A stretch of DNA of 64,000 nucleotides from Candidatus Liptonbacteria bacterium (lineage in GTDB: Bacteria > Patescibacteriota > Minisyncoccia > UBA6257 > 2-01-FULL-56-20): positions 10,913 through 74,912 of the forward strand of contig JACQKU010000008.1 of NCBI GenBank assembly GCA_016204335.1, given 5' to 3'. Positions 24,337-63,917 of the stretch are shown one piece after another (within the stretch, counting starts at the first letter, position 1; every line of letters begins with the position of its first letter). The notes under the pieces are model-generated. The model saw only the letters and a program-made list of their open reading frames with translations. It made no database searches and was not told where the DNA came from. The position numbers and the translations under genes are program-made.

Positions 24337-24437
24337 GGCGAGAAAATATGAAAATATTTTCGAGACAAAACCAAGTATTCCATACTACGAAATATCTGCT
24401 TGCTATAACCTGTGAATTACGAAACTCCTCTGCAACC

Positions 24438-24537
24438 GTCATTGCGAGGACCGCGAGCGAAGCATGGCGGGACGAAGCAATCCAGTAAACGATATGTAAG
24501 AACTGGATTGCCGCGCCCCTTTGGGGCTCGCAATGAC
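24438..24537. repeat. Palindromic element family A copy 1 (TIR GTCATTGCGAG...CTCGCAATGAC), nested inside a longer IR GAATTACGAAAC / GTTTCGTAATTC (24411-24561)
   Basis: 11-nt perfect termini plus internal GCAATCCAG...CTGGATTGC palindrome. Confidence 0.6.
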
Positions 24538-24600
24538 GACAAAAAAGTGTTTCGTAATTCAAAGTATAAAGTCCAAGCAAAAGGCAACGGAAAATATTTA

Positions 24601-24618
24601 ATTTCCTACGGGGTATGC
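24601..24618. repeat. Motif D copy ATTTCCTACGGGGTATGC; its ATG (24615) is the start codon of the Fcl-like gene
   Basis: Sequence read directly. The ORF begins ATGCTCGAT (MLDLKNKKILVAGG). Confidence 0.55.
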
Positions 24619-25559
24619 TCGATTTAAAAAATAAAAAAATACTCGTTGCGGGCGGCAGCGGATTTATGGGTTCTCATGTGGTAGCCGCGCTGAAGTCGCG
24701 CGGAGTTTCGGATGAAAAGATCGTTGCGCCAAATTCGGCGGAGTGCGATTTGCGGGTTTTCGCGGATTGCCAAAAAGCCGTCAAGGGAATAGACGTGGTA
24801 TTCGACTGCGCGGCAGTGCCGGGAGACATCCTGATGCGGGAGAAAATTCCCGGCCAGCTCTTTTATGAAAATCTTTTAATGGGAATCCAGCTTCTTGAGG
24901 CGGCGCGGCAGGAAGGAGTCGGGAAAGCCGTGGTGATCGGAAGCGCTACGGAATACCCGGCGGATGCGCCGACACCGTTGAACGAAGAATCTCTTTGGAA
25001 CGGACTTCCGTCGTCGGGCAATATTCCATACGGCATGTCGAAACGCATCGTGGGAATTCAAGGGGCGATGTACCGCCGCGAGTCCGGATTCAACGCCATT
25101 CATCTCCTTCTCACGAATTCCTACGGGCCGGGCGAGAAATTCGAGAGCGGTTATATGGTTCCCTCGCTCATACAAAAAATCATGAATGCGAAAGCGCGCG
25201 GAGAACAAGAAATCGAAGTATGGGGAACCGGACAGGCGCTCCGCGATCTCATGTACGTCGAAGATGCGGCGGAAGGAATCGTCCGCGCCGCGGAACGGTA
25301 TGACGATGCGGCGCCGCTCAACATCGGCTCCGGCGCCGGAATTTCGGTGAAAGATTTGGTAATGCTCCTCTCGAAACTTATCGGATTCGAAGGAACGATT
25401 CGCTGGGATACGACAAAACCGGAAGGCGACTTGAAGCGGCTCTTGGATGTAAGCCGCGCCGAACGCACGATCGGATTCAAAACGAAAACTCCGCTCGAGG
25501 AAGGGCTGAAAAAAACGATTGAGTGGCATAGGGAACAATCTTCCGTTACCCAAGTATAA
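24615..25559 (+). CDS. Fcl-family NAD(P)-dependent GDP-6-deoxy-4-keto-hexose epimerase/reductase (paralog 2)
   Basis: [59 protein letters not shown]. Confidence 0.75.
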   Translation: MLDLKNKKILVAGGSGFMGSHVVAALKSRGVSDEKIVAPNSAECDLRVFADCQKAVKGIDVVFDCAAVPGDILMREKIPGQLFYENLLMGIQLLEAARQEGVGKAVVIGSATEYPADAPTPLNEESLWNGLPSSGNIPYGMSKRIVGIQGAMYRRESGFNAIHLLLTNSYGPGEKFESGYMVPSLIQKIMNAKARGEQEIEVWGTGQALRDLMYVEDAAEGIVRAAERYDDAAPLNIGSGAGISVKDLVMLLSKLIGFEGTIRWDTTKPEGDLKRLLDVSRAERTIGFKTKTPLEEGLKKTIEWHREQSSVTQV

Positions 25560-26427
25560 ACCGATGGTGGAATCTCTTGAACCTACAAACGAACCGTTCA
25601 ACCCGGATGAGCTGTATAGAAAAGCGCTCGCGGATCACACCGACTACGGAAATTTGCCCGAGAGCGAAATTAAGGCCTTGATTACCGAAATTGCACAGGA
25701 GATAAAGCAACTCGAAGAGGTTGGCGAAAAAGAAAAAGCGAGAATTGAGATGCCCGCGGAAACGGCGAAGAAAATCGGCGCGATCTGGGTGAACTCCGGA
25801 GTGGGAACCTACGATACGCCTCTTAAAGAAAAAGAGCGGGGTGTGTATAAAAATCTTCCCTGGATTCAGTGGGCAGACCGGCAACGGTTGAATCACGCGG
25901 CGATTCTTGCGCGGAAAGTGGCGGAAGCAAGAAGCGGAGAAAATTTTGACAGGGGCTCTCTTGCGAGCATCAAAGAGCGGAAAGCAAAAATCAAAGAGAT
26001 GATTGGGAGGTACGGCCCCAAAATCATCTATAACGGCACGGAACTTGAAGACGATACCGTTGCTGACGTGCTTTCGCGGGAAGGAACTATTATTCCGGAA
26101 GATGATGTAATTATCATACGAGGTTCTGTCGAACGTCCAATTATCAACACGCTTGATACCGTAAAAACGCTCAAACTGCCTCCCGAGTTCAGAGATGACC
26201 AGGAGCTCGCAATTGTCGCTCATGCTCCCCATCTTGCGCGAATCATGCGTATGCTCAACAAACAACCGCCGTTCCCGAGAACCACAAAGGTAAGATTGTT
26301 TCCCGTGCCTACGCCCGAAGCAGGGAAAAAAGAATACGCCGAGCTCGAAATACTCGGAATTCTGAATTATGTATTGCGGCGAGGAGTCGCGGAGAAGGAG
26401 TCGTATCCTTATGTCATGAACGAGTAA
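25519..26427 (+). CDS. Hypothetical protein (possibly DUF218/YdcF-like C-terminal region)
   Basis: ORF with an ELAIVAHAPHLARIMRML segment reminiscent of DUF218. The start may be the downstream Met at 25564. Confidence 0.35.
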   Translation: MSGIGNNLPLPKYKPMVESLEPTNEPFNPDELYRKALADHTDYGNLPESEIKALITEIAQEIKQLEEVGEKEKARIEMPAETAKKIGAIWVNSGVGTYDTPLKEKERGVYKNLPWIQWADRQRLNHAAILARKVAEARSGENFDRGSLASIKERKAKIKEMIGRYGPKIIYNGTELEDDTVADVLSREGTIIPEDDVIIIRGSVERPIINTLDTVKTLKLPPEFRDDQELAIVAHAPHLARIMRMLNKQPPFPRTTKVRLFPVPTPEAGKKEYAELEILGILNYVLRRGVAEKESYPYVMNE

Positions 26428-26455
26428 TTTTTTTCCCAAGCTTTATCCGGTTAGC

Positions 26456-26560
26456 CAGGTAGTGAAAATTCGACTTGCAGGGTAGCGAAGCCAAGCTCTA
26501 CCACCCTGCTTGTCGCCAACTGCGGCAGATAAGTCTTTCAGTCGAATTTCTACTACCTGG
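26456..26560. repeat. Palindromic element family B copy 3 (CCAGGTAGTGAAAATTCGAC...GTCGAATTTCTACTACCTGG)
   Basis: 20-nt near-perfect inverted termini. Intergenic. Followed by a partial motif-C-like palindrome at about 26636-26690. Confidence 0.5.
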
Positions 26561-37142: not shown

Positions 37143-37156
37143 TTTCTTGTTATTTT

Positions 37157-38245: not shown

Positions 38246-38260
38246 GATAGAATGAGATGA

Positions 38261-39607: not shown

Positions 39608-39614
39608 CGTTTTC

Positions 39615-44777: not shown

Positions 44778-44904
44778 CCAGGCAGTAGAACTGCGACATT
44801 GGCAGTTCGTAATTTCAATGATTCATATCGCGAGAAAGGTCTTTTTTACTTTAGAAACTTGTAACAAGTCAGCCGCAGGCTGAAGTCGCAGTTTCACTGC
44901 CTGG
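44778..44904. repeat. Palindromic element family B copy 2 (CCAGGCAGTAGAACTGCGAC...GTCGCAGTTTCACTGCCTGG)
   Basis: Ends 2 nt before the ATG of the sulfatase-like gene. Confidence 0.5.
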
Positions 44905-44905
44905 T

Positions 44906-46300
44906 ATGCCTTCACAGAAAAGGAGAACAAAGCCCAACGTCATTTTTATTGTCATCGACGGACTGCGCGCCGACCATCTCGGCTCGTTCGGCTACCGCCG
45001 CCCCACGAGCAGATTTTTGGATGCGTTCGCGAAAAACTCGGTTAATTTCCGTTCGCACTTTTCAAACAGTTCTCAATCGGCGCCGGGATTTTTTTCTATT
45101 TTTGCATCGGCATATCCTTTTATGCGGAGCGATTGGACGACGACCAAGGGTCCTTATGAATTTTTAAGTGAAGTTTTTCGAAAAAACGGTTACAAAACTG
45201 CAGGATTCGCCTGTTCTCCTTATATCTCTTCATTCTTCGGCTATGACCGCGGGTTCGACGATTTTTATTATTCCGGATGCCATGATGATTCGGATGCGGT
45301 GAAAAAAACCATAAAGTCGACATTACCCTCGCGGATGTTCGAAATGCTCAAGAAGTTTGTTAAAACCACCACTATCGGAAAAATGATGAATCGTATCAGA
45401 TTCCGTTTTTTAATGCAGCCCGCTTACAGCAATTCGGAAGCAATCAATGAAATCGTGGAAAATCATCTTTCTCGTAGCGATTGCAATGACAGGCCTCTTT
45501 TCGCGTGGATCCACTACTTGGATGCGCATGTTCCTTTTAGAAGCAAAAAAAATGATATTCGGGCGGTGGGAGGACGCTTTGGCGCGCGGCGCGCAAATTT
45601 TTTGGACCGTAAAGTATTCAGCTTTACACTCCTCAATCCTTTTGTCGATGAAGAACGGATGACCGTTCAAGAACTCAAAGACCTTGAGCTATGTTATGAC
45701 GCGCAAATTTACCGCGCCGATCGCAATCTCGAAAAATTGTTTTCAATGCTTTCGGAGAACGGTATCTCCCGGGAGAATTCCGTAATCGCGATTACCGCCG
45801 ACCACGGAGAGGGATTCGGGGAACACTTCGGCATAGGGCATACTATGCGTCTTTATGATGAGTTGGTGCATGTTCCTTTCTTTTTATCAGTACCGGGAGG
45901 AAAACCGCGCGAAGTTTATGATCTCACCAATCATATCGATATTGTGCCGACACTCGCCGCATCCGCGGGAATTTCTTTGCGAAGCCGTTTCATCAAAGGC
46001 AAAAATGTGCTTAAGGGTTCGGATACAAAGTATGTCTTTAGCGAAGTCGCGCCGAACCTCGGCGGCATGCTCTCTAAAATAGATTTTTCAAGAAGCGTGT
46101 TTTCCGTCCGCGGAAAGGAATGGAAATATATCAAGGATTATGCAAGGGAAAGAGAGGAACTTTACCATTTATCGGAAGATCCTGACGAGTTGAAAGATCT
46201 GTCGCAAACGGAAGTAGACGTTAAAAACAAACTTTGGAATTTGTTGAGAGTACATATCAAGAGGAAAACGAAAGCGGTGCCGTATCTTAAGGATGTCTAG
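44906..46300 (+). CDS. Sulfatase-like hydrolase/transferase (alkaline phosphatase superfamily); canonical C/S-x-P-x-R sulfatase motif not evident
   Basis: NVIFIVIDGLRADHLGSFGY (metal site), TADHGEGFGEHF and overall sulfatase-domain layout, but NSSQSAPG in place of CxPxR. Confidence 0.65.
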   Translation: MPSQKRRTKPNVIFIVIDGLRADHLGSFGYRRPTSRFLDAFAKNSVNFRSHFSNSSQSAPGFFSIFASAYPFMRSDWTTTKGPYEFLSEVFRKNGYKTAGFACSPYISSFFGYDRGFDDFYYSGCHDDSDAVKKTIKSTLPSRMFEMLKKFVKTTTIGKMMNRIRFRFLMQPAYSNSEAINEIVENHLSRSDCNDRPLFAWIHYLDAHVPFRSKKNDIRAVGGRFGARRANFLDRKVFSFTLLNPFVDEERMTVQELKDLELCYDAQIYRADRNLEKLFSMLSENGISRENSVIAITADHGEGFGEHFGIGHTMRLYDELVHVPFFLSVPGGKPREVYDLTNHIDIVPTLAASAGISLRSRFIKGKNVLKGSDTKYVFSEVAPNLGGMLSKIDFSRSVFSVRGKEWKYIKDYAREREELYHLSEDPDELKDLSQTEVDVKNKLWNLLRVHIKRKTKAVPYLKDV

Positions 46301-48355: not shown

Positions 48356-48369
48356 ATAAGTTTGTTATC

Positions 48370-50885: not shown

Positions 50886-51119
50886 CTCCCAGATTCTCAC
50901 TTGCCCCTCCCTTCGGGTTAGAGTCGTTGCAAGAGCAGTTCGTCGGCAGAGATACACTCCGCCGTCAAACCGCCGGTTTTCGGTAAGGACGATACACATA
51001 CTTCCTTTCTTCAGTCGTATTCACTTTTCAAGGGCTGATATAGCGAAAGGGGCCAGGTCCGCCGAACTGCTTTTAGTGAAACATAAATCAAAAGATATGT
51101 CAAATCACCGCTCCCCCCG

Positions 51120-51821: not shown

Positions 51822-51829
51822 GATTTATA

Positions 51830-52528: not shown

Positions 52529-52647
52529 CCCGTTAGAGACAGGTCGCCTCGGGCGACCGTAATTCAGCGGTTTTTACTGCAATCGCTTTTGGGACGGCAA
52601 GATAAGACATAGTTTAGAAATCATAGTATTGTTGTCTCTAACGGGAT
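52528..52647. repeat. Motif C module 2: ATCCCGTTAGAGACA - spacer with GGTCGCCTCGGGCGACC hairpin - TGTCTCTAACGGGAT
   Basis: 15-nt perfect inverted termini bracket the C-MT2 stop / HD3 start junction. Confidence 0.6.
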
Positions 52648-53855
52648 TTCTTCCCGATAATTCTGAATCGAGGAATCGGGACGATGAATTTTCCTCCGTT
52701 TTTGAGCCAGATTTGCTCGCGCTTCACGAATGTATCCGTGAACGCCCACGGCAAAATCAAAAAATAGTCGGGATTTTTTTTGCGCGCTTGTTCCTCGGAA
52801 ACGATAGGAATGTTTGTGCCAACGGTGAACTTGCCCCATTTTACTTTGTCTTTGTCGGCGGCGGCTGTGATTAACTTTGACGTGAGTCCATAGTATTGGA
52901 GAATGGTGTTGCCTTTTGTTGACGCGCCGTAGGCATAAACTGTTTTGCCTTTTTCAACTTCGCGTTTGATGAACTCAACGCACTTCCTTTTGTTTTCTTC
53001 GAGTCGCTTTGCGAAAGCGGGGTAATCGAATTTCGGCTCCGGATATTTGACGCTTCCCTTGTTTAGTTTTCGCGCGAACAAACGATAACTTCCTCCGTTT
53101 ATGGAATTTTCTTCGACTTTGAATATCTCGAGGCCGTTTTTCTCAAACAGGTACATCAGCGACGGATAAGAATAAAATTCAAGATGTTCGTGGCAAATGT
53201 TGCCGACGTCGTTTTTTTCGATCATGGGTTTCAGCGTCATCAGTTGCGCGATGAATACGCCGTCGTCGGCAAGGGCTTGAGCGGCGTCGCCGACGAACTG
53301 CCCCGGATTTTCCATATCGTAAAACATTCCGATGGCGGTGATGATTTTCGCTTTTGGAATCCCGAGTTTTTTATACGCCGCGTACGACCAGAAATCGTGA
53401 ATGATTTTGTCGGCGTGTTTTTTAAGCTTCGCTTGGAGATTGTTCGCGGGTTCGCAGGCGGCACGGATATAGTTCGGAGAGAAAAATTTCAAGAGCGTGC
53501 CGTCGTTCGCGCCGATATCCAAAACAACATCGTCTTTCTTGAGCTCCGCGAGTTTTTGGGAAACGCGGGCAATTTCTTTCAAATCGCTCACGATAACCGG
53601 ATTGACGGCGGACTGATACCAATAATGCCGTGAGTACATTATTTCTTGCGGGGCGGTATGTTTCAGTTGAAGCAAGCCGCACTTTGAATTTGAGCACAGA
53701 ACCAATTCCAGCGGCGCAAGTATCGGCTTTTTAGATTGTTTGGTTACGAAATCGGAAACCGCCAACTTCCCCAAAGAAAGAATTTTTTTGAGTTTTTTGC
53801 CTCCGCAGAGGCGGCAGGTTTTTCTTGTGATGTAAGATAGTTTTATTGCCTTCAT
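52638..53855 (-). CDS. NDP-hexose C-methyltransferase (TylC3-like), paralog 2
   Basis: CRLCGGKKLKKILSLGKLAVSDF Zn-ribbon, VLDIGANDGTLL, and C-terminal TVYAYGASTKGNTILQYY domain. Confidence 0.75.
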   Translation of the reverse strand: MKAIKLSYITRKTCRLCGGKKLKKILSLGKLAVSDFVTKQSKKPILAPLELVLCSNSKCGLLQLKHTAPQEIMYSRHYWYQSAVNPVIVSDLKEIARVSQKLAELKKDDVVLDIGANDGTLLKFFSPNYIRAACEPANNLQAKLKKHADKIIHDFWSYAAYKKLGIPKAKIITAIGMFYDMENPGQFVGDAAQALADDGVFIAQLMTLKPMIEKNDVGNICHEHLEFYSYPSLMYLFEKNGLEIFKVEENSINGGSYRLFARKLNKGSVKYPEPKFDYPAFAKRLEENKRKCVEFIKREVEKGKTVYAYGASTKGNTILQYYGLTSKLITAAADKDKVKWGKFTVGTNIPIVSEEQARKKNPDYFLILPWAFTDTFVKREQIWLKNGGKFIVPIPRFRIIGKKSR

Positions 53856-53932
53856 TTTGATCGTAAGATACTGTATCATATTATTAATCTGCCGTTAAGC
53901 CAAGCGAGCTTTTCACGACACATTTTGCTTAA

Positions 53933-55129
53933 ATGAAAATAGGAATTGTAAATTTTGATCTCGGCGCGCCCATGGGGGATACGAGGTGCACCGGCTCTTT
54001 TGCCCGCGCTTTAAAAAAATCGGGTCATGAAGTTATTGTCTATACCACAGATTTCAACCCTGGACTTTTTTACGACTTGTGGAGCGGCATTGAGGTAAAA
54101 GTTTTTCCGCAAAAACCGCCGCTCGAAAAGATTCTTCTCGGCTCGTCAGGGATTTTCGCGAGGGCGTTGAGAAAAGTTCGGACAAACCTCTGGGCCCGGC
54201 GCGCCGCGCGCGATTTCAGCGGCAAAATAGATCCCGATTTAGACATTCTTGATTGCCACAATTGGTACACGTATAAGATTGCTCCGCTTTACCGCAAAAT
54301 AAATTCGCGAGCGCGGATTATTTGGACGATGCACGATCCGCCGTTCAATTACCGCCCTAAAAAAAACCCAATTTTAAACTTACTAGCGCTTATCCAGTTT
54401 TACGTTGAGCCGTTGTACGAGAAACGGTTTTACTCGTGCGTCGATGAAATTATCGTCATGGACGAGAGAAGTCGCAACATTGCCAAAGATTACTCTCCTA
54501 AAGTGCGCCTGCTTTATTTGGGCATTGACTATGACCATTTTTATATGCCGCCCCGCAAGCGCGATCGCAAAAAGCGCCTCCGACTTTTAGGCGTTGGCTC
54601 AATGAGTCCCTACCGCCGCTTCGAAGATATTATCGAAGCAACTCGTCAAATGCGCGAGAACGGATTGGATGCTTTGGCGACTATTGTTTGCCGTGATTTT
54701 TGGGGAGATAAGGCTTATCAAGAAAGCTTTTTATCGGCGATGAAGAATTCCGGAATAGAAAAATTTTTGGATTCGCGTCAAGATGGCGTAAGCGAAGAAG
54801 AGCTCTTAAAAATTTTCCGCGAAAGTGACGTTTACGTGTTCCCGAATCACATCCGCATTTGGGGCATGGCAGCCTTCGAAGCTATGGCTGCCGGTTTGCC
54901 TCTTATTGTTTCAAACATAACCAGCGCCTCCGAAGTTCTTAAGGACGGTGAAAATGCCCTTTTTGTTGACCCGCTAAGGCCTGATCAGATAGCGCAACAG
55001 GCCAAAAAACTTTCCGAGGATGATGGTTTTTATCGAAAGATAGCGGGAAATGGACAAAAGTTTGTCCGCGACAATTTGACTTGGGAAAATTACGCCAAGA
55101 ATTTTTTAAGTGATTCAGCGTCACAATGA
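53933..55129 (+). CDS. GT4-family glycosyltransferase
   Basis: FEAMAAGLPLIVSNITSASEVLKDGENALFVDP. N-terminal half resembles the GT4 at 38381. Confidence 0.8.
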   Translation: MKIGIVNFDLGAPMGDTRCTGSFARALKKSGHEVIVYTTDFNPGLFYDLWSGIEVKVFPQKPPLEKILLGSSGIFARALRKVRTNLWARRAARDFSGKIDPDLDILDCHNWYTYKIAPLYRKINSRARIIWTMHDPPFNYRPKKNPILNLLALIQFYVEPLYEKRFYSCVDEIIVMDERSRNIAKDYSPKVRLLYLGIDYDHFYMPPRKRDRKKRLRLLGVGSMSPYRRFEDIIEATRQMRENGLDALATIVCRDFWGDKAYQESFLSAMKNSGIEKFLDSRQDGVSEEELLKIFRESDVYVFPNHIRIWGMAAFEAMAAGLPLIVSNITSASEVLKDGENALFVDPLRPDQIAQQAKKLSEDDGFYRKIAGNGQKFVRDNLTWENYAKNFLSDSASQ

Positions 55130-55256
55130 ATCCCATTAGAGACAACTTTGCTATGAATTCAAGATTTACAAAATGCAATAAGGTAAGCCAAAAGTCGAAG
55201 CAATGCGGCTTAATCACGGGTATGCTCTTAGGCATACCCTGTCTCTAAACGGGATG
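55130..55256. repeat. Motif C module 3: ATCCCATTAGAGACA - spacer with GGGTATGC..GCATACCC hairpin - TGTCTCTAAACGGGATG (ATG = start of next gene)
   Basis: Begins the nucleotide after the GT4 TGA stop. The right terminus carries the ATG of the CgeB-like gene. Confidence 0.6.
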
Positions 55257-56333
55257 AAGATAATTTACTCCGGTCTTCGAGTGGAAAATTATAATCCGAA
55301 ACGTTCTCCAAGCTTCGAATATACCAACTTTTATTTAACATTGAAATCGCTGTTCAGCGCGGAGGTGATTGAATATCCGTTCGATAATATTCTGAAAGTT
55401 GGCAAGCGGTGGTTTAATAAAAACCTTCTCGATCTCATTCTGCGCGAGAAGCCGGATCTTTTTTTCGCATTCATGTACACAGACGAATTGGACGTTGAAA
55501 CGCTTGATGCGATAAAGCGAAAAACGAAAACCATCGCGTGGTTCGCGGACGACCATTGGAGGATTTGGAATTATTCACGCCATTACGCGCCGCACTTTAC
55601 ATGGGGCGCGACCACCTGGTCCATGGCGCCGGCGATATACGCAAGGTACGGAATTAAAAATATAATCCGTTCGCAGTGGGCGTGCAGTCCGCGAGAGCGG
55701 GAACCCTTCGACTTCGCTCAGGACAAGCTCTTCGACGTGGCTCAGGGTAAGCCGCTTAATAAAGATATAAACGTGAGTTTTGTGGGCCAGCGCACCGAGA
55801 AACGAGCGAATATCATTGAAGAATTGCGCCGGGCCGGAATAAATATTTACGTTCGCGGCTGGGGTTGGCCCGAAGGCAGAGTATCAGAAGAAGAAGCGGT
55901 GAAGATATTTTCGCGAAGTAAAATAAACTTGAATATCAACGATTCGCCGAATTTGTTTAAGCCGAAATATCTGGCGCGGCTGTTTCTGCGGCGGTCAATG
56001 AATCGTTTTGTTCCCAGTTTGAATTTTTTGGACAATTTTCAGTCGTGGAGAGGAATGTCCGTCCCGCAGATTAAGGCAAGACCATTCGAACTTTCCGCCC
56101 GCGGCGCGTTCGTTATTTCCGGCTACGCCGACGATATGGACGCGTATTACGAAGAAAACGAAGAAATGATTTTTTATCGTTCGTCCGCCGAGCTTGCCCA
56201 AAAAATAGCATATTATTTGGAGCGCGGCGATGAGCGGGAAAAAATCGCCGAAGCCGGGTATCAGCGAACCCTGCGCGAACATACGTACAAAAAAAGGTTC
56301 GAAGAGATATTTGAGAAAATCGGTTTACGTTGA
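55254..56333 (+). CDS. CgeB-family (Glyco_trans_1_2 / DUF3880-like) putative glycosyltransferase
   Basis: About 360 aa with FVGQRTEKRANIIEEL...GYADDMDAYYEENEEMIFY pattern typical of CgeB-like proteins. Moderate. Confidence 0.45.
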   Translation: MKIIYSGLRVENYNPKRSPSFEYTNFYLTLKSLFSAEVIEYPFDNILKVGKRWFNKNLLDLILREKPDLFFAFMYTDELDVETLDAIKRKTKTIAWFADDHWRIWNYSRHYAPHFTWGATTWSMAPAIYARYGIKNIIRSQWACSPREREPFDFAQDKLFDVAQGKPLNKDINVSFVGQRTEKRANIIEELRRAGINIYVRGWGWPEGRVSEEEAVKIFSRSKINLNINDSPNLFKPKYLARLFLRRSMNRFVPSLNFLDNFQSWRGMSVPQIKARPFELSARGAFVISGYADDMDAYYEENEEMIFYRSSAELAQKIAYYLERGDEREKIAEAGYQRTLREHTYKKRFEEIFEKIGLR

Positions 56334-56379
56334 AGGGTGTCGAAGCCAGTATCGGCCGTCGGCTTACGTTATTTAGTTC

Positions 56380-56788
56380 ATGGATGAAACAAAAAAACCT
56401 AAAATAAAGTCATTTCGCGATTTAGATGTTTATCGAAATGCTTATGATGCAATGCTGATTGTGGCGCAGAAATTATTACCGCAATTGCCAGCCAGCGAAA
56501 AATTCGATCTTCGAGATCAATTATCGCGCTCCACAAAAGCAGTTCCGCGCCTTATTGCTGAAGGATATGTCAAGAAACACCAGAAATTTGGTTTCAAAAA
56601 AATATCTTGATGATGCGATGGCCGAAGCCAATGAAACTATTGTTGGCGTTGAACAATGCCGCGATATTTACCAAATAAATAAAGAACTTTGCGATGATTT
56701 GGTTGATAGATATGATAAAATTGCTTGCCAGCTTTATCGACTTTCTGAATCATGGGATAATTTCAGCCGTAAGACGAAAAACGAATAA
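56380..56788 (+). pseudogene. Four-helix-bundle protein (TIGR02436, 'S23 ribosomal protein/23S rRNA IVS protein' family) interrupted by a frameshift near an A7 run
   Basis: Frame 1 gives FRDLDVYRNAYDAMLIVAQ...RDQLSRSTKAVPRLIAEGYVKKHQK then stops at 56610. The family continues in another frame (...YLDDAMAEANETIVGVEQCRDIYQ). The frame break maps at about 56575-56600 around CAAAAAAATA. Confidence 0.55.
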
Positions 56789-56817
56789 CGATACGGGCTT
56801 CGCTAACGTACAACCTT

Positions 56818-57792
56818 ATGATAACGGCAAAAGTTTCCATAATTATTCCTTCGTATAACGCGGGGGCATACGTCAAAGAAGCGGTGGATTCGGCGCTTGC
56901 CCAAACCTATCCGCACTGTGAAATAATCGTGGTCGACGACGGGTCAACCGACGATACCCAAGAAATTCTGGCGCCGTATGCGGAAAAAGGAAGCGTGCAG
57001 TATGTCTATCAGGACAATAAAGGCCTGGCGGGCGCCCGGAATACAGCCATAAAAATCGCTCGCGGCGAATATATCGCGTTTCTCGACGCCGACGACGTTT
57101 TTATACCGCAAAAAATGGAACGGCAGGTTCAGTATCTCAAAGACCATGCCGAGTGCGATGTTTCCTATTGCGACCTGTATCATTTTTGGGACGGCCGGCC
57201 CGAGACATTGCTGAAGCTGGATTACCGTTATTATTCCGGAGACGAAGTCTTGCCGAATCTGATAAAACGGGATTTCATAGCGCCGCTCTCGATGCTTGTC
57301 AGAAAATCGGTTTTTGAAAAATTCGGATTGTTCGACGAACATTTCCGCCGTTCGGAGGACCTGGAATTTTTGGTCAGAATTCTCCGCGGCGGCGCGAGAA
57401 TTTGTTTTCTCGATGAAATCCTGGCGAAGCTCCGCCTGCGCCGGACTTCCAACCTCCAGGGTTTTTTGAGCCAGCCGGAAGTCAAGAAAACGGGGCTGGC
57501 TGTTTTTGAAAATCTTTATGACAATATCGGCCCCGAAGAGCGGGAACGGCTGAAGCTTAAAAAATATCTGGCACTGTACCGCCTGAAAGTCGGGCTGGCG
57601 TACTTGGAAAACAATAATAAGATGGAAGCAAAGAAATTTATGTACGATAGTTTTTCAGGTTTTAGGGGCGGGTATGTCTTTGGTCGACTCTTCTGGTTTT
57701 TAATCGTCATCACGCCCGGCAGTTTACTTTCCTCGTTTATTCGGTATTATCACTTAAAGAAGCAGGATTCTAACCTTGAAGAAATAACATGA
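56818..57792 (+). CDS. Family 2 glycosyltransferase
   Basis: VSIIIPSYNAGAYVKEAVDSALAQTY...IIVVDDGSTDDT...FLDADD. Confidence 0.85.
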   Translation: MITAKVSIIIPSYNAGAYVKEAVDSALAQTYPHCEIIVVDDGSTDDTQEILAPYAEKGSVQYVYQDNKGLAGARNTAIKIARGEYIAFLDADDVFIPQKMERQVQYLKDHAECDVSYCDLYHFWDGRPETLLKLDYRYYSGDEVLPNLIKRDFIAPLSMLVRKSVFEKFGLFDEHFRRSEDLEFLVRILRGGARICFLDEILAKLRLRRTSNLQGFLSQPEVKKTGLAVFENLYDNIGPEERERLKLKKYLALYRLKVGLAYLENNNKMEAKKFMYDSFSGFRGGYVFGRLFWFLIVITPGSLLSSFIRYYHLKKQDSNLEEIT

Positions 57793-58883
57793 GAGAGAAA
57801 GTTCTAATCACCGGCGGCGCGGGATTTATCGGTTCTCATACCGCCGACGCTTTGTCAAAACACGGCTATCGGATAAGAATTTTGGACAATCTGCAGCCGC
57901 CCGTTCACAGCGGCAAGTGGCCGGCTTACGTATTGAACAAAGGATTCGAGTTGGTTCGCGGCGACGTTCGCAAAAAAGCGGATTTCCTGAAAGCGTTGCG
58001 GGGGGTTTCCTATGTCTATCATCTTGCGGCGTATCAGGACCAGCGTCCGGATTTCAGCAAGTTTTTCGAAACGAATACCGTCGGCACGGCACTTCTCTAC
58101 GAACTTATTGTCGAAAAAAAACTTCCTATCAAAAAAGTGATTCTCGCGAGTTCGCAGTTCGCGTACGGAGACGGCAAGTATCAGTGCGTTCATAACGCCC
58201 ATCCTTCGCCAATGCTTCGGAGGACAAGAAAGTTTTTTTATCCCGAGCCGAGAACCGAACGACAGTTCAAATCAAAAAAATTCGATATTCTGTGCAGTCA
58301 CGGCAGGATAGCGAAATTTTTTCCGTTCCGCGAGGAACAGCCGCTTGTCCCGACGAACTCCTACGGACTTTCCAAAGAGGCGCTGGAACGCTTGGCCTTC
58401 CGGCTCGGCAAAACCTACGGTATTCCGACAACGGCTCTCCGGTATTCGGTTGTCCAGGGGCCACGGCAGTCGCCGAAGAATCTTTATTCCGGCGCGCTTC
58501 GAATTTTCACGGTTCAGGCGCTTTCCGGAAAACCCATTACCGTATACGAAGACGGTCTGCAGACCCGCGATTTCGTGAACGTGAACGATGTGGTTTCAGC
58601 GAATATTTTAGCGTTAAAGAATCCCAGGACAAACTTTTCCGCCTTCGGCGGAGAAGTTTTTAACGTAGGCGGCGGCAAAGCGTACAGGGTTTTGGATTTT
58701 GCGAAACTCGTCAAGAAAATAACCGGGTCCTCTTCGCCGATTCTCATCGGCGGTTTCCGGAGAACCGACACGCGCCACGCGGTTTCTGACATCGGCAAGC
58801 TCAAAAAACTCGGCTGGCGGCCGCGGTTCGCGCCGGAAAAGTCGGTTCGCGATTATGTCGAGTGGTATCAAGAAAATTTTTGA
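57789..58883 (+). CDS. NAD-dependent epimerase/dehydratase family protein with long internal insertion
   Basis: KVLITGGAGFIGSHTADAL; catalytic YGLSK. About 60-aa insertion between the Rossmann and catalytic blocks. Confidence 0.7.
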   Translation: MREKVLITGGAGFIGSHTADALSKHGYRIRILDNLQPPVHSGKWPAYVLNKGFELVRGDVRKKADFLKALRGVSYVYHLAAYQDQRPDFSKFFETNTVGTALLYELIVEKKLPIKKVILASSQFAYGDGKYQCVHNAHPSPMLRRTRKFFYPEPRTERQFKSKKFDILCSHGRIAKFFPFREEQPLVPTNSYGLSKEALERLAFRLGKTYGIPTTALRYSVVQGPRQSPKNLYSGALRIFTVQALSGKPITVYEDGLQTRDFVNVNDVVSANILALKNPRTNFSAFGGEVFNVGGGKAYRVLDFAKLVKKITGSSSPILIGGFRRTDTRHAVSDIGKLKKLGWRPRFAPEKSVRDYVEWYQENF

Positions 58884-58952
58884 CCGAAGATATGTCGTGC
58901 TTTTATCTGCGCGCTTTTGACATCAAGCCGTTCTTTTTTTATACTGCTTGGT

Positions 58953-59972
58953 ATGATTGTTGTTCGCGCTCCTCTTCGCATCAGCTTTGTCGGCGGCGGC
59001 ACGGACCTACCGGATTTTTACCGGCGTTCGCCCGGCCGCGTGATTTCGACCGCGATCGATAAATTTGTTTATGTAGTCATCAATCGGACGCCGCTCATCG
59101 ACAAAGTGTCGGCGCGGTACTCAATTGCCGAAACAGTCAATCATCCGAGCGAACTCAAGCATACCCGCATTAAGGCCGCGCTTCTTGACCTCGGGATTCA
59201 TAAAAATATCGAAATCGCGTCGTTCGGAACACTGCCTGCGAAAACGGGCCTTGGCTCTTCGTCGTCCTTTTCGGTCGCTCTTATGAGAGGACTTCACGGT
59301 TTTCTCGGCAGGAAAATTGATAAACGGCAAACTGCCGAAGCCGCGAGCCGTCTTGAAATCGAGCTTGTCGGCGAACCGATCGGCAAACAAGACCAGTATG
59401 CGGCATCGTTCGGCGGCTTTAATGTTTTGCAGTTCAACCCAGATGAATCGGTGGACGTTGACCCGGTATTGCTTCACTACAAAACACAGCTCGGCCTTGA
59501 GGACCACTTGCTGCTTTTTTTCACCGGAATTACCCGCAATGCTTCGGAAGTCCTTGCGGAGCAGAAAACGAATATAGGGAAAAAAGTGGACACCCTGAAA
59601 GAAATGGCCGAATCGGTTCATGAATTTAAGGAGAAACTTCTCAACGGGAATTTCAGGGGGATGGCGGAGATGCTTCACGCAAGATGGCTCAAAAAGAAGA
59701 CCCTTGCGTCGAATGTTTCGAATTCGACGATAGACGAATTATATGAAGCCGGCATTTCTTCAGGCGCGTGGGGCGGCAAAGTGCTCGGGGCAGGCGGAGA
59801 CGGCTGTATTATGTTTATAGCGCCGCCCGAAAAAAAGAACGATATCAGGCATGCGCTCAAAAAGATTGTCAGTGAAAAGAAAATCGCCGATTTTCAGGAA
59901 ATACCCGTAAAATTCGTACAAGCGGGCGCGGAAATTCTTTATAACGGCGACTACGTTCATAATTTCGGATAA
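58953..59972 (+). CDS. GHMP-family sugar kinase, D-glycero-D-manno-heptose 7-phosphate kinase (HddA)-like, paralog 1
   Basis: MIVVRAPLRISFVGGGTDLPDFY N-terminus and GHMP ATP-binding loop GTLPAKTGLGSSSSF. Confidence 0.7.
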   Translation: MIVVRAPLRISFVGGGTDLPDFYRRSPGRVISTAIDKFVYVVINRTPLIDKVSARYSIAETVNHPSELKHTRIKAALLDLGIHKNIEIASFGTLPAKTGLGSSSSFSVALMRGLHGFLGRKIDKRQTAEAASRLEIELVGEPIGKQDQYAASFGGFNVLQFNPDESVDVDPVLLHYKTQLGLEDHLLLFFTGITRNASEVLAEQKTNIGKKVDTLKEMAESVHEFKEKLLNGNFRGMAEMLHARWLKKKTLASNVSNSTIDELYEAGISSGAWGGKVLGAGGDGCIMFIAPPEKKNDIRHALKKIVSEKKIADFQEIPVKFVQAGAEILYNGDYVHNFG

Positions 59973-59978
59973 AATCAA

Positions 59979-60581
59979 ATGGAAGAATTCATCAGAAAAT
60001 TCGGAGAACGCGCCGCAGAACTGCTTAAGCGTCTTCCTGCCGGTGAAATCGCGAAGGCGCTGAGTATTTTGCAGGCGACGTACGAACGCGACGGGCGTAT
60101 TTATGTTTTTGGGAACGGCGGTTCGTGGGCGATTGCCGGACACTGGGTGACCGATTTCAATAAAACCGTGTTCAGCGCGCATCTTGACGAACACCACCGG
60201 CGCTTCCGTATCAGCAGAGTGCCCGATACCGCAGAGGAACTTACCGCGTGGGCGAACGATATCGGTTACGACATGATTTTCGCCGGCCCGCTTGCGAACG
60301 TTCTTGAAGATACCGACGTGGTCATCGCAATTTCAAGTTCGGGGAATTCCTCGAACATAATCAAGGCGGTCGAGGTCGCGAAAAAAAAGAACGTGCCGGT
60401 CATAGGGCTTTCCGGTTTCGACGGCGGGAAACTGAACCAGCTCGCGGACGTAAAAATTCTGGTTCCGACATTGAAGGGAGATTACGAACTTGTTGAGAGC
60501 ACTCACGACACAATTATGCATCTGATGACCGTGTATTTCCGCGAATATTTCGCGCACCTCGCCGAGACGAATCAATCATGA
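59979..60581 (+). CDS. gmhA: Phosphoheptose isomerase (sedoheptulose-7-phosphate isomerase), SIS domain
   Basis: GRIYVFGNGGSWAIAGHWVTDF...VVIAISSSGNSSNIIKAVEVAKKKNVPVIGLSGFDGG. Confidence 0.8.
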   Translation: MEEFIRKFGERAAELLKRLPAGEIAKALSILQATYERDGRIYVFGNGGSWAIAGHWVTDFNKTVFSAHLDEHHRRFRISRVPDTAEELTAWANDIGYDMIFAGPLANVLEDTDVVIAISSSGNSSNIIKAVEVAKKKNVPVIGLSGFDGGKLNQLADVKILVPTLKGDYELVESTHDTIMHLMTVYFREYFAHLAETNQS

Positions 60582-61546
60582 TTATCGCCCGTGTTCCTTT
60601 AAGGCTTGAATTTCTTGGTGGAAGCACCGATATCGCCTCATTCTATAAGCGTTATCCAGGCCACATCCTAAATACCACCATTGACAAGTATATTTATGTG
60701 ATTGTGAAATCGGCTCCGGGGCGCGGCGTGACACTGGTGCACGAAAAAACGGAACGAGTTTCGGATCGGGACAAGTTAACACACGCGCGGACTCGAGCGG
60801 TGCTTACGCATTTCGGTTTGAGGAACGGCGTTGAAATTATTTCGTTGTCTGATGTATTTGGCGGTTCTGGGCTCGGCTCGTCGAGTGCTTTTGTTGTCGG
60901 CTTAGTTCAAGCGCTTGCTGTCTATACCGGCAGGCGGATGTCAAAGCGTGCTATCGCCGAACTTGCCGCGCATATCGAAATCAATGTGCTTGGGGAACCT
61001 ATAGGGAAACAAGACCATTATGCCGCGGCATTCGGCGGTTTGACCGTAACGACCTATCAAAAAAACGGGTTTGTTGATGTCCAGCCAATCCGACTCCCGC
61101 CCAAAATTATGGAAGCTCTCCAGAATCACCTGCTGCTGTTTTATTCAGGAGAAAAGCGTTCGGCGTCTAAAATTTTAAGAAGTCAGAGTAAACAGAATAA
61201 AGAAAATTTTTCGTATCTTGTTCAAATGTCTGATATTGTTGAACCGGCGACGAAAGCACTCAAGCGCGGAAACCTCAAGCGTTTTGCGGAGTATCTTTTC
61301 GAAGAGTGGACTATCAAGAAAAATTTGTCTTCCGGTGTTACGACACGAAAGTTGGAAGATATGTATGCGACAGCGGTGCGTGCCGGCGCGTGGGGCGGCA
61401 GAGTGAGCGGCGCAGGCGGCGGCGGATTTATTTTTTTCTTCGCGCCGCCATCGCGGCACGCGGCGATACGGAAAGCGCTCAAAAACTACGAAGAATTTCC
61501 ACTCCGTTTCACCGAAGAAGGGAGTGAGGTACTTTACAGTTCTTGA
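60578..61546 (+). CDS. GHMP-family sugar kinase, HddA-like, paralog 2
   Basis: MIIARVPLRLEFLGGSTDIASFY; SDVFGGSGLGSSSAF. Confidence 0.7.
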   Translation: MIIARVPLRLEFLGGSTDIASFYKRYPGHILNTTIDKYIYVIVKSAPGRGVTLVHEKTERVSDRDKLTHARTRAVLTHFGLRNGVEIISLSDVFGGSGLGSSSAFVVGLVQALAVYTGRRMSKRAIAELAAHIEINVLGEPIGKQDHYAAAFGGLTVTTYQKNGFVDVQPIRLPPKIMEALQNHLLLFYSGEKRSASKILRSQSKQNKENFSYLVQMSDIVEPATKALKRGNLKRFAEYLFEEWTIKKNLSSGVTTRKLEDMYATAVRAGAWGGRVSGAGGGGFIFFFAPPSRHAAIRKALKNYEEFPLRFTEEGSEVLYSS

Positions 61547-62241
61547 AGAAGTTCTGCGAGATTAACACTTTTCCAGTCCAGGAAAACTTTGGAGGCGCCG
61601 GCTTTCCAAAGGGCATCAATCGTTTCAGATCTTTTATAAACCGGCATGCCAATTGCTTTTGACCCGGCGGTGAGCGCCGCTTGTACGCCACGTGGCGAGT
61701 CCTCAAAAACAAGTTGTTCATTTGGAGAAATATTCATCCGCCGTGCGGTTTCGAGAAACACGTCGGGGGCGGGCTTCAAATTTTTCACATGCTCTTCGAG
61801 GGTAATTCGTTCCATGGGGAAGAGTTTCAAAAGCCCTGAATGTTCAAGGAGTTTTGTTGCTTGATTTTTAGGCGTGAGTGATCCGATGGCAATTTCAAGG
61901 CCATGTCGCTGTGCCGTTTCGAGGAAATCTAAAAATCCCGGCCGCGGAGCAATCGTGAGCGAGGCCAGAAATTCCTCATAGTATTCGTCACCCCTTTGGA
62001 GCATCGCTTCGGGAGATAGGCTCTTATTTGAGAGGTCGTACAGTTCTTGCATAAGAACCTTGCCGGGTCCGCCGATGAAATGCGGAATTTTCAGGATCGC
62101 CTCGTCGAGCGTGAGCAACACGCCCGCATCCCGCGCTACGTTCAAATGCGCCTTATGGTGCGCTTCTTCAACGTCAATCACTGTCCCTTCAAGATCGAAT
62201 GCGATTCCTTTTATCATGATATCGTCTATGTTATTATGCAT
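61534..62241 (-). CDS. HAD-superfamily hydrolase, subfamily IA (beta-phosphoglucomutase-like phosphatase)
   Basis: GIAFDLEGTVID (motif I variant) and later HAD motifs. Candidate sugar-phosphate phosphatase of the heptose module. Confidence 0.6.
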   Translation of the reverse strand: MHNNIDDIMIKGIAFDLEGTVIDVEEAHHKAHLNVARDAGVLLTLDEAILKIPHFIGGPGKVLMQELYDLSNKSLSPEAMLQRGDEYYEEFLASLTIAPRPGFLDFLETAQRHGLEIAIGSLTPKNQATKLLEHSGLLKLFPMERITLEEHVKNLKPAPDVFLETARRMNISPNEQLVFEDSPRGVQAALTAGSKAIGMPVYKRSETIDALWKAGASKVFLDWKSVNLAELLQEL

Positions 62242-62266
62242 TTTGACTTTTGTCGAACATACTTTT

Positions 62267-63001
62267 ATGCAAAATCAGCCAATTAAACAGGCAGTGATTC
62301 TTTCGGCGGGGCTCGGCACTCATTTACGGCCTTTGACGGATAACATTCCGAAAGTAATGGTGCCGCTCGGCGGAAAGCCGCTTTTGGAACATCACATCGA
62401 ACAGTTTAAAAAACACGGCGTCACGGATTTTTTTATCAACCTTCACTATCTCCCGGATGCAATTACTAATTACTTCGGTGACGGTTCGCAATGGGGAGTA
62501 AAGATTACCTATACCCTTGAAAAACCGGATATTCGGGGGACAGCCGGCGGGATGAAAAATTTTGAACCGTATCTTCATGAACCATTTTTTGTTATTTATG
62601 GAGATATGTTTAGCATGTTGGATTACACGGCAATGGCAAATGAGTTTATGCGGCATCCGGACAATATTGGCATGATGCTCATCGGTCCGGCAAATCATCT
62701 CCACGATTCCGATCTTGTCGAAGTGGATGACAAGTTTGATTTCGTGAAGCTGTATTTAAAACCGCATAGTATTTTGCCGGCCACGGAAATGACCCTTCTT
62801 GCAACTTATATTTTTACTCCAAAGATTTTGTCTTATATCCCTGTGAATGCGTATTACGAAATAGACCACCAGCTTTTGCCGGATATTCTCGCTCACGGCG
62901 AAAAGTTTTCTGGATACACTTCATCGGATTATATTTTGGATATCGGTACGATGGAACGATATCAGAAAGTTCAGGAGTATTTGAAAAGTTTGAAGAAATA
63001 A
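62267..63001 (+). CDS. Sugar-1-phosphate nucleotidyltransferase (HddC / mannose-1-P guanylyltransferase-like)
   Basis: AVILSAGLGTHLRPLTDNIPKVMVPLGGKPLL N-terminal NTP-transferase signature. About 245 aa. Confidence 0.7.
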   Translation: MQNQPIKQAVILSAGLGTHLRPLTDNIPKVMVPLGGKPLLEHHIEQFKKHGVTDFFINLHYLPDAITNYFGDGSQWGVKITYTLEKPDIRGTAGGMKNFEPYLHEPFFVIYGDMFSMLDYTAMANEFMRHPDNIGMMLIGPANHLHDSDLVEVDDKFDFVKLYLKPHSILPATEMTLLATYIFTPKILSYIPVNAYYEIDHQLLPDILAHGEKFSGYTSSDYILDIGTMERYQKVQEYLKSLKK

Positions 63002-63002
63002 A

Positions 63003-63917
63003 ATGCAATCTCCGAAAGTAAGTATTTTAATGGCAACATACAATCGTGCCGGTTTCATCGGCCCGGCGATTGAAAGTGTCAGAAAGCAGACACGTAAAGA
63101 TTGGGAATTGATTATCGCGGACGACGGTTCGAGCGACGCTACTTCGGAAGTCGTAAAAAGCTGGGAGAAAAAAGAATCTCGAATTGTCTACGCGCGGAGC
63201 GAGATAAATCAGGGCATTTCCAAAAACTACAACCGCGGCCTGCGGCTCGCGAAAGGGGAATACGTCGCGATGATTGACGACGACGACCCGTGGCTGGATG
63301 ACGGAAAGCTCGAAAAGCAGATTAAATTTCTGGACGGCAATCCCGATTACGTCGGCTGCGGCGGCGGAGTGATTGTGGTTGGTCCTTCGGCCGTCATTGC
63401 GAGCGAAGCCGAGTCAGACTCGGCGAAGCGAAGCAATCTCGGGATTGCTTCGTCGTTTGAAACTCCTCGCAATGACGTGAAAGAACTCTATCGTTATTTG
63501 AAACCAGAGAAAGACGAAGAAATCAGAAAATACATGCTTTTCTCGAATCCGATGGCGAACAGCACGACCGTTTTCAGGAAAGCCGCCGGCGAGAAAGTCG
63601 GCTGGTACGACGAATCGACGAGATACTCGGGCGACCGCGATTTCTGGCTCAAAATGGGGCTTGTCGGAAAGTTATACAACTTTCCGGAATACTTTTCCTA
63701 TTACACGATGAGCGACAGCAATACCTCCGTTCAAAAAATCAGGCCGCATCTCAAGGCGTCGCTGATGATTATGAAGCGGTACAAAGGAAAATATCCGGGC
63801 TATGTTTCCGCTCTTGCGTTCAACGAGCTCCAGTATTTTTATTCTTTTCTGCCGGAGAAAATCAGAAAGCCGATACACTTTGCTCTCGCTAGGATGAAGC
63901 GCCGGACATTAGGATAG
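63003..63917 (+). CDS. Family 2 glycosyltransferase carrying an in-frame palindromic-element insertion
   Basis: VSILMATYNRAGFIGPAIESVRKQT...LIIADDGSSDAT...IDDDD. Family A element at 63393-63476 encodes AVIASEAESDSAKRSNLGIASSFETPRND in frame. Confidence 0.8.
   Translation: MQSPKVSILMATYNRAGFIGPAIESVRKQTRKDWELIIADDGSSDATSEVVKSWEKKESRIVYARSEINQGISKNYNRGLRLAKGEYVAMIDDDDPWLDDGKLEKQIKFLDGNPDYVGCGGGVIVVGPSAVIASEAESDSAKRSNLGIASSFETPRNDVKELYRYLKPEKDEEIRKYMLFSNPMANSTTVFRKAAGEKVGWYDESTRYSGDRDFWLKMGLVGKLYNFPEYFSYYTMSDSNTSVQKIRPHLKASLMIMKRYKGKYPGYVSALAFNELQYFYSFLPEKIRKPIHFALARMKRRTLG
63393..63476. repeat. Palindromic element family A copy 3 (GTCATTGCGAGCGAAGC...CTCGCAATGAC), 84 nt, in-frame within GT2 CDS
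   Basis: Perfect 11-nt termini. Internal palindromes GCCGAGTCAGACTCGGC and GAAGCAATCTCGGGATTGCTTC. Confidence 0.6.

Follow-up and report, generated by a model that had tools for sequence, protein, structure and literature searches.

What are the three short palindromic elements that lie between and within the genes of a candidate-phylum bacterium, how did they reach their sites, and how does a gene persist with one of them inside it? These questions are raised by a 64,000-nt stretch of DNA from a 'Candidatus Liptonbacteria' bacterium (Parcubacteria group, Patescibacteria; contig JACQKU010000008.1), hereafter called the window. An earlier note on this DNA had described the elements as a hairpin-forming repeat that has colonised both intergenic and coding DNA, and this description held: two copies are intergenic and one is translated in frame within the gene for a family 2 glycosyltransferase (GT2). 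Taken as a whole, the data are probably best explained by a widespread hairpin repeat of the CGTC-tagged repetitive extragenic palindromic (REP) type, which is copied as a whole dimer and has been tolerated as an in-frame insertion in the GT2 gene. The kind of finding is ordinary, tagged palindromic repeats and in-frame insertions having been described in 2000 and 2013; new here are the Patescibacteria host, the wider range of phyla and an in-frame insertion that can be traced in orthologous genes.

Anatomy of the elements and of their family

The 11-nt sequence GTCATTGCGAG occurs six times as an exact match in the window, and all six matches fall into three inverted pairs with CTCGCAATGAC. 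The elements bounded in this way span 24438-24537 (100 nt), 32160-32255 (96 nt) and 63393-63476 (84 nt), and their termini are perfect, just as had been claimed. When one mismatch was allowed, seven matches to GTCATTGCGAG were found in the window compared with 1.29 expected, a number that none of 100 shuffles reached. The seventh match (at 23659, with one mismatch) is unpartnered and lies in coding sequence, and was rejected as chance. No decayed copies were detected in the window by a search allowing up to three mismatches per end, and no single (unpaired) units were found there, all six units sitting in three dimers. The predicted hairpin formation was likewise supported by folding, in which all three elements performed far better than shuffled sequences on both strands (z -4.9 to -7.0). 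With the conserved base that adjoins each 11-nt end (see below) included, the three copies are as follows.

24437..24538: copy A1, two CGTC-tagged units joined as an inverted dimer (24437-24484 on the left and 24504-24538 on the right, with the spacer 24485-24503 between them)
32159..32256: copy A2, an inverted dimer (left unit 32159-32195, tagged TGTC; spacer 32196-32205; right unit 32206-32256, tagged CGTC)
63392..63477: copy A3, an inverted dimer without spacer (left unit 63392-63440, right unit 63441-63477), within the GT2 coding sequence

Both units of A1 carry the tag CGTC and the tail CCA, with upper stems of CCGC..GCGG and CCCC-AAA-GGGG, and the element as a whole folds at -50.5 kcal/mol. 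A2 folds as a whole at -49.4 kcal/mol and carries the upper stem GCCAAGT-TAT-ACTTGGC in its right unit. The left unit of A3, which is translated in the frame VIA...PRND, has the upper stem GCCGAGT-CAG-ACTCGGC; read side by side, this stem and that of A2 are distinguished by one compensated G-C to A-T change. Overall, the window contains five CGTC tags and one TGTC tag, together with two CCA, two CTC, one CTT and one CCC tails, and its G+C content is 43-52%.

The family was examined in a collection of at least 284 copies (270 distinct), made up of the three window copies, 132 that came from scanning one genome per species and 149 found on IMG/VR viral contigs. The collection scans demanded just the two 11-nt ends, and hence were blind to monomers outside the window. 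The interior GAAGCAATC... / ...GATTGCTTC was present in almost every copy though it had never been selected for, and because this unselected core accompanies the ends, we consider the copies homologous. Moreover, the base just outside the ends proved to be conserved at about 95%, as 128 of 135 copies have C or T to the left and 131 of 135 have G or A to the right; the 11-nt termini of the earlier note, although perfect, therefore belong to conserved ends of 12 nt, (C/T)GTCATTGCGAG. Copies of the family range from 73 to 120 nt in size.

Each unit consists, in order, of the tag (C/T)GTC, ATTGC, GA, a short stem of complementary halves with a GNA-type triloop, GAA, GCAAT and a tail. This gives a lower stem of 5 bp, an internal loop rich in purines and a self-complementary upper stem of 2-9 bp, which is variable and closes with a 3-nt loop. 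Of 568 unit ends, 377 had the tag CGTC and 167 the tag TGTC, and of 509 units, 277 ended in the tail CCA and 113 in CTC. The lower stem ATTGC...GCAAT, and thus an A-T pair at its start, was found in every unit, a regularity partly imposed by the parsing pattern. In the upper stems of 72 distinct units with an 18-nt inner part, 30 double-sided changes were counted compared with 5.0 +/- 2.0 after shuffling (0 of 500 shuffles reached 30); in the covarying pairs, G-C exchanges with A-T, C-G and G-T. The tandem G.A/A.G mismatches of common units become Watson-Crick pairs in others, and the upper stems of the window units are longer than those of this 18-nt class. The notion that a unit is a strong independent hairpin was rejected, in that the commonest units fold weakly (-4.6 kcal/mol) and no better than shuffles; what speaks for it is the covariation.

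When the whole dimer is folded as a single strand, it gives one branched hairpin of -46 to -50 kcal/mol, compared with about -28 to -31 kcal/mol for the parts apart, and an alternative pairing joins the 8-nt ATTGCGAG with CTCGCAAT at the dimer's opposite end. Such arm-to-arm complementarity is built into any inverted dimer. The elements are better described as inverted dimers, each composed of two REP-like units and having the build of a REPIN (a REP doublet forming a hairpin), than as the single element with incidental internal palindromes that had been proposed before.

In the copies at L057 5306-5389 and 6251-6370, L009 101-215 and L061 4514-4631, an extra hairpin module of 36-46 nt was observed between the central and outer stems. 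These copies are otherwise near-identical to ones without the module, which points to nested, modular growth.

In-frame copies in the GT2 gene and elsewhere

63003..63917, plus strand: GT2 glycosyltransferase gene hosting A3 (Pfam PF00535, E 1.2e-33)

The PF00535 match in the GT2 protein stops at residue 119, just ahead of the insert, and the 84 nt of A3 correspond to residues 131-158, read in frame as VIASEAESDSAKRSNLGIASSFETPRND. The protein is identical to a database glycosyltransferase named 'Candidatus Liptonbacteria', and the peptide VIASEAESDSAK belongs to this insert-bearing protein. Almost all of the 120 homologs listed are 266-292 residues long. Alignment with orthologs, which the earlier note had put forward as a check on the insertion, bore it out: the closest ones (85-87% identity) lack the segment and read GGGVIVVDTKSEELYRYL, compared with GGGVIVVGPSA[VIASEAESDSAKRSNLGIASSFETPRND]VKELYRYL in the window. 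In the DNA, this position takes up 12 nt in the empty alleles and 99 nt in the filled allele, a net gain of 87 nt that is made up of the 84-nt element and 3 nt. The element does encode the 28 in-frame residues that had been attributed to it, but the net gain relative to the orthologs is 29 residues. We also considered whether GGTCCTTCGGCC, immediately upstream of A3, might be part of the element, and rejected this, as it does not recur beside other copies. It is the ancestral host loop, which encodes GPSA here, has the consensus D-x-x-G-K-E and reads D-P-S-G-K-E in orthologs such as P0057.

A second filled allele, belonging to a more distant ortholog, was recovered from an independent sequencing run (Logan SRR22388145) and carries its insert at the same codon and with the same length of 84 nt. 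Between the two filled genes, codon positions 1 and 2 differ at 0.13-0.16 and third positions at 0.44-0.48 (0.39-0.45 at the third positions of codons for identical residues), and the low divergence at first and second positions indicates that the GT2 gene has been kept under purifying selection. In comparison with the 0.39-0.45 of synonymous host sites, the ends of the element show a single difference in 22 nt; the right arm shows four differences in 36 nt, and the left arms are unalignable, as if swapped. In a neighbour-joining tree computed without the loop, the filled alleles are not sisters, and each clusters with empty ones (in this clade, P0001 and P0002 are filled, and P0003-P0006, P0013 and P0018 are empty). 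Given that the filled alleles each group with empty alleles, the pattern requires either a single gain with two or more clean losses after it, or that the segment was transferred from one lineage to another. One orthologous insertion in two lineages, with conserved ends, a swapped arm and empty nearest relatives, offers a natural experiment on the persistence and loss of such inserts.

An AlphaFold2 model of the GT2 protein (117 sequences) had a GT-A fold with a mean predicted local distance difference test score (pLDDT) of 87.4 and a predicted template modelling score of 0.85, and the nearest solved folds were ordinary GT2 enzymes such as SpsA. Residues 132-154 had a pLDDT below 50 and were placed between strands 116-128 and 159-165; in the model, then, the insert is a low-confidence loop at the tip of a β-hairpin. 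Nine sequences of the 117-sequence alignment have more than 14 residues over the loop window, namely the two filled alleles and seven others whose inserts are of the KPARLAS type or consist of duplicated GKPFDTAH. A 24-sequence alignment further placed an extra 17-residue insert just upstream of the loop window in P0009 (which is in the 117-sequence alignment) and in P0007 (which is outside it). The GT2 β-hairpin loop is a tolerant, recurrent insertion site.

Loop inserts were seen in P0007, P0009, P0010, P0014, P0019, P0020, P0054, P0107 and P0119 (loci L245-L247). One of the loop inserts has a 12-bp inverted copy of the adjoining host codons (GTTGTTGTGGCT...AGCCACAACAAC), and others are the tandem GKPFDTAH x2 or of the KPARLASESVAG type. 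Near an empty GT2 ortholog, a weak match to bAvd, an accessory protein of diversity-generating retroelements, was noted at L123 3897-4226 (minus strand).

In-frame insertion was also surveyed among the 281 copies in fetched loci, using proteins with Pfam domains. Three further copies were found inside well-supported proteins.

78 nt: copy in GMP synthase (GuaA), within the GATase domain match
L048:1761-4490, minus strand: UvrA, with a copy of 87 nt between domain matches (uncultured Gammaproteobacteria)
L223:5493-7292, minus strand: phage portal protein, with a copy of 84 nt C-terminal to the portal domain match (PF04860, E 8e-54; IMG/VR contig)

All four intragenic copies (GT2, GuaA, UvrA and portal) share the reading frame VIA...PRND and are a multiple of three in length, compared with about one third of the copies overall. 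The conserved arms can be read in two frames without a stop; the remaining frame ends at the TGA in ...CAATGAC. Because the intragenic copies are multiples of three and lie in an open frame, the sequences fit read-through translation rather than splicing. According to the study that defined the CGTC-tagged REPs, intragenic CGTC and GTAG REPs have been catalogued in several species (Di Nocera, De Gregorio & Rocco 2013, BMC Genomics 14:522; PMC3733652). Together with the in-frame copies in GuaA, UvrA and the portal protein, this speaks against the earlier opinion that such behaviour, familiar from Rickettsia, is rare elsewhere. The intragenic peptides of the window family were absent from the supplements of that study (PMC3733652). 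Metagenome proteins with VIAS...KQS, ...PRND or ...LAMT peptides ought to be flagged as repeat-derived. The portal-gene copy also indicates that some of the viral-contig matches lie in real phage genes.

Distribution and relation to known repeats

The element is present well beyond the window, as was expected if it is a repeat: its ends are carried by at least 120 other stretches of genome DNA and by at least as many (120) viral contigs, and the exact ends with the core GAAGCAATC were found in at least nine phyla and on IMG/VR contigs. Among the matches listed, the carriers are Alpha-, Beta- and Gammaproteobacteria, Bacteroidota, Chloroflexota, Planctomycetota, Cyanobacteria, Patescibacteria, Desulfobacterota and Moduliflexus, the named ones including Bradyrhizobium, sphingomonads, Micavibrio, Mucilaginibacter, Pedobacter, Flavobacterium, Bacteroidales, Microcoleus and three Patescibacteria. 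Copies from Alphaproteobacteria mostly have the tag CGTC, the tail CCA and a 12-nt inner part, those from Bacteroidota have a 10-nt inner part, and those from Patescibacteria and Chloroflexota mostly have the tail CTC and longer upper stems. Because the subfamilies follow taxa in this way, the distribution suggests long residence inside lineages over constant exchange. Copies were also found on 12 large plasmids (of Novosphingobium, Methylosinus, Methylocystis, Methylobacterium, Aulosira and Halomonas), one of which carries them in at least 40 places. For phage as the main vehicle speak the many IMG/VR matches and the portal-gene copy; against it speaks the near-absence of the element from curated phage genomes, in which 3 of 50,697 records matched, with half units only.

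The 2013 study defines the CGTC-tagged REP superfamily by a terminal CGTC, often TGTC (a variant with CCTC also exists), and divides it into four families, CGTC-1 to CGTC-4, with hosts from five phyla (PMC3733652). As described there, the stems open with complementary A-T at positions 1-2 and are followed by a 3-nt tail, mostly CCA; inverted dimers predominate and fold either separately or as a single large stem-loop; the spacers often hold small stem-loops; the repeats lie chiefly downstream of genes, with some intragenic copies, notably in replication and repair genes such as uvrA; and there is no associated transposase, an extinct enzyme being one hypothesis offered (PMC3733652). The elements of the window family show the superfamily's tag, A-T start, tail and inverted dimer, with no transposase alongside. 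They also share its spacer stem-loops and a mostly intergenic location with some in-frame copies (uvrA again), and Novosphingobium, Bradyrhizobium, sphingomonads and Micavibrio are hosts of both. We conclude that the elements likely belong to the known CGTC-tagged REP type, a likeness drawn from described features and not from consensus sequences for CGTC-1 to CGTC-4. Their range differs in also taking in Patescibacteria, Chloroflexota, Planctomycetota, Cyanobacteria, Desulfobacterota and viral contigs. The range of the CGTC type would now include Patescibacteria and several other phyla with near-identical ends, which is unusual for REP-like elements. Literal searches of the literature for the ends and core returned unrelated primers only, and later papers that name CGTC REPs merely cite the 2013 study.

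The Rickettsia palindromic elements (RPE), reportedly described by Ogata et al. in 2000, resemble the window family in being palindromic, in frame within coding genes, missing from orthologs and tolerated at the protein surface. RPE-1 is longer than the window elements and is not known to be related to them in sequence. To our knowledge, RPEs are restricted to Rickettsia, whereas the window family extends over many phyla. RPE-4 and RPE-6, and also Neisseria dRS3 (as CGTC-1), are classed as CGTC REPs in the 2013 study (PMC3733652). Because the window elements bear the same tag, the comparison with RPE drawn in the earlier note was apt, and the resemblance may reflect relatedness beyond analogy. 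The stems differ, in that rickettsial CGTC-1 peptides such as VIPAKAGI would back-translate to ATTCCCGC..GCGGGAAT, compared with ATTGC..GCAAT here. The tag and the tagged-hairpin design are shared with Neisseria dRS3 as well. The dRS3 units are known mainly as clustered repeats and as targets of prophage integration, whereas neither clustering nor a prophage junction was seen for the window elements.

REPIN sequences are species-specific, and REP-like elements are normally lineage-specific; in contrast, the core of the window family is shared across phyla. In other respects the likeness to REPINs is close, as in both cases two inverted REP units and a spacer are copied whole as a hairpin, without target-site duplication, and lineage-specific subfamilies exist (Bertels & Rainey 2011; Nunvar et al. 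2010). The tag here is CGTC or TGTC, compared with GTAG in REPINs, and no gene for a REP-associated tyrosine transposase (RAYT) flanked by copies was found in the window or the fetched loci. Rfam 15 yielded no family match around the copies even with E up to 10 (best E 0.2-9, far below gathering scores), and the sole Rfam hit in the window was a tRNA at 1644-1727. An integron attC site and a CRISPR repeat were rejected on sequence and context, by comparison with their consensus sequences, and an intrinsic terminator was rejected because no terminator-like site and no T-run were present at 24200-24700 and 32050-32400.

Copying, genomic setting and rival explanations

In 23 pairs of copies, the inner, non-conserved part was at least 85% identical and the flanks were unrelated. 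Because near-identical interiors sit in unrelated flanks, the unit that is copied is the dimer together with its spacer, as in REPINs. No direct duplications of 4-6 or 8 nt flanked any of 135 copies, and a single 7-nt match was found. An exact inverted repeat of at least 8 nt in the flanks was present at 12 of 135 copies compared with 5 of 663 mismatched-flank controls, and A1 is among the 12. The surroundings of A1 and A2 are listed below.

23819..24298, plus strand: cupin / mannose-6-phosphate-isomerase-like gene, upstream of A1
24413..24561: enclosing 13-nt inverted repeat around A1 (TGAATTACGAAAC at 24413-24425, GTTTCGTAATTCA at 24549-24561)
24615..25559, plus strand: NAD-dependent epimerase/dehydratase gene, downstream of A1
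29710..32154, plus strand: YfhO-like membrane protein gene (PF09586, E 5.4e-17), with its stop 5 nt upstream of A2
32291..33019, minus strand: methyltransferase gene, convergent with the YfhO-like gene

A1 lies in a 316-nt gap between two same-direction genes and occupies the would-be loop of an older hairpin, the 13-nt inverted repeat; the nesting agrees with the earlier note, and the repeat is 13 nt long, not 12 bp. A1 and this repeat are in turn enclosed by the larger pair 24306-24336 / 24601-24631, which is the pair of motif D (described below) within which A1 had been placed. The 11-nt end of A2 begins 6 nt past the last base of the YfhO-like open reading frame (ORF), again as had been claimed, and A2 takes up most of the 136-nt gap between the convergent 3' ends of that gene and the methyltransferase gene.

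From these observations a mechanism may be proposed. Whole dimers are duplicated to new sites without target-site duplication, and new copies often settle in the loops of other hairpins. They would move as folded single-stranded DNA through the action of a trans-acting enzyme that is not encoded beside the copies. A copy with a multiple-of-3 length in an open frame could survive inside a gene if it landed in a tolerant surface loop; this is what took place in the GT2 gene, where the insert adds 29 residues at the tip of a β-hairpin and has left the gene intact. A1 and A2 would be transcribed as strong RNA hairpins, through which they might affect mRNA ends, and an effect of the intergenic copies at the RNA level is possible.

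Several observations weigh against this explanation, or against parts of it. A candidate mobilising enzyme was not found in the copy-bearing loci searched, no insertion or excision event was caught, and two metagenome scans turned up neither an A2 site lacking the element nor any additional filled GT2 allele; copies in the source genome were counted within the 64 kb only. The single-strand mechanism is suggested by likeness to GTAG REPs and to IS200/IS605 elements, and the patchy GT2 pattern could result from recombination between lineages and not from gain and loss. In the 2013 study, CGTC REPs have a contiguous stem of 8-9 bp and a loop of 4-5 nt, with the loops of Bradyrhizobium CGTC-1 being atypical (PMC3733652), whereas in the units here the lower stem has 5 bp, the internal loop is rich in GA, the upper stem varies and the loop has 3 nt. 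Finally, two variable positions before GCAAT (AA or YG) combine randomly between the arms (120/68/15 compared with 119/71/11 expected), so that the arms act as independent units and between-arm pairing is not visibly selected at these positions.

The perfect terminal inverted repeats, the size of 73-120 nt, the many dispersed copies and the duplication of whole elements to unrelated loci would also suit a classical miniature inverted-repeat transposable element (MITE), the 11-12 nt ends of which would be the terminal inverted repeats recognised by a DDE transposase, encoded by a related insertion sequence that is present in full length at another genomic site. We consider this very unlikely, given the near-lack of flanking duplications reported above. 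Furthermore, no unpaired ends enclosing a gene were found in 120 genome loci (long gaps being beyond the reach of the collection searches), and no transposase-like protein recurs near the copies in these loci, as all-versus-all clustering of 2,685 ORFs yielded just generic families, ABC ATPases and sensor kinases among them; the interior, moreover, is two tagged hairpin units and not filler between ends. The same duplication of near-identical whole dimers, at unrelated loci within genera, argues against fossil CGTC REP dimers, that is, copies whose enzyme is gone, which are kept alike by gene conversion and by deletion of decayed ones, and which are no longer mobile today. Such fossils would account for the absence of a dedicated transposase for CGTC REPs, whose extinction is a hypothesis of the 2013 study (PMC3733652), and no RAYT-like gene was detected here, four RAYT/IS200-type proteins having no tblastn match in 2.09 Mb of copy-bearing DNA; the left arm that was seemingly replaced between the filled GT2 alleles, with ends and right arm kept, also suggests conversion. 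Nevertheless, the window lacks decayed copies, copies occur on viral contigs and even within a portal gene, and presence in GT2 is patchy among close relatives. These points argue for fairly recent gain and loss, and the fossil explanation is in our view highly improbable.

A structured RNA or DNA motif that is kept by the host, whether to stabilise 3' ends, to act like a terminator or to bind a protein, and that has spread by selection, would be consistent with the position of A1 between same-direction genes and of A2 between convergent 3' ends, with the very stable folds (-46 to -50 kcal/mol) and covarying upper stems, and with ends that evolve slower than synonymous sites; many REPs are, moreover, thought to be transcribed and to act as RNA elements, according to the 2013 study (PMC3733652). 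However, neither A1 nor A2 has a U-tract or a terminator-like site, Rfam gave no match up to E 10, copies lie within coding sequences that are unrelated to one another, a setting in which a role as RNA is improbable, identical dimers occur at unrelated loci, and presence is patchy among close orthologs. Selection for such a function is therefore a rather improbable account of the family, and a host benefit at some copies is compatible with the explanation that we prefer, a CGTC-type repeat copied as whole dimers. An extension of that explanation is a pan-bacterial hairpin replicator without an element-encoded enzyme, which would use a conserved host function or a phage-borne one. This reading is based on 12-nt ends and a core that are nearly unchanged in at least nine phyla, in candidate-phylum genomes of about 1 Mb and in phage genes, and we regard it as unlikely, if worth stating. 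If the element indeed has no enzyme of its own, the small gene set of Liptonbacteria would narrow the search for the enzyme that mobilises CGTC REPs; for finding such an enzyme, comparing the gene content of carriers becomes practical when one of them has a very small genome.

Other repeats were also noted in the window. Motif D, GCATGCCCCGTAGGAAAT, has inverted recurrences at 24306-24359, 24601-24631 and 29571-29611 and a weaker one at 25108-25139; it flanks the intergenic region of A1 on both sides, and another copy lies about 100 nt upstream of the YfhO-like gene. This motif may be regulatory or terminator-like. Spacerless, near-perfect long palindromes were found at 20931-20996, 5886-5941 and 20048-20097 (33+33 nt at 85%, 28+28 nt at 89%), and these are rich in TTCGTA/TACGAA, a motif that also occurs in the 13-nt repeat around A1. 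A direct repeat of 89 nt (89% identity), its copies 666 nt apart, occupies 6331-6419 and 6997-7085. A second family of inverted repeats is represented by three copies (5684-5758, 26455-26561 and 44778-44905), with the ends CCAGGCAGTAGAAATGCGACT and AGTCGCATTTTCACTGCCTGG, a GTAG within the left end and variable interiors of about 33-86 nt; the first copy lies in the 5' part of the minus-strand ORF 4420-5832, and the third ends right before the ATG of ORF 44906-46300.

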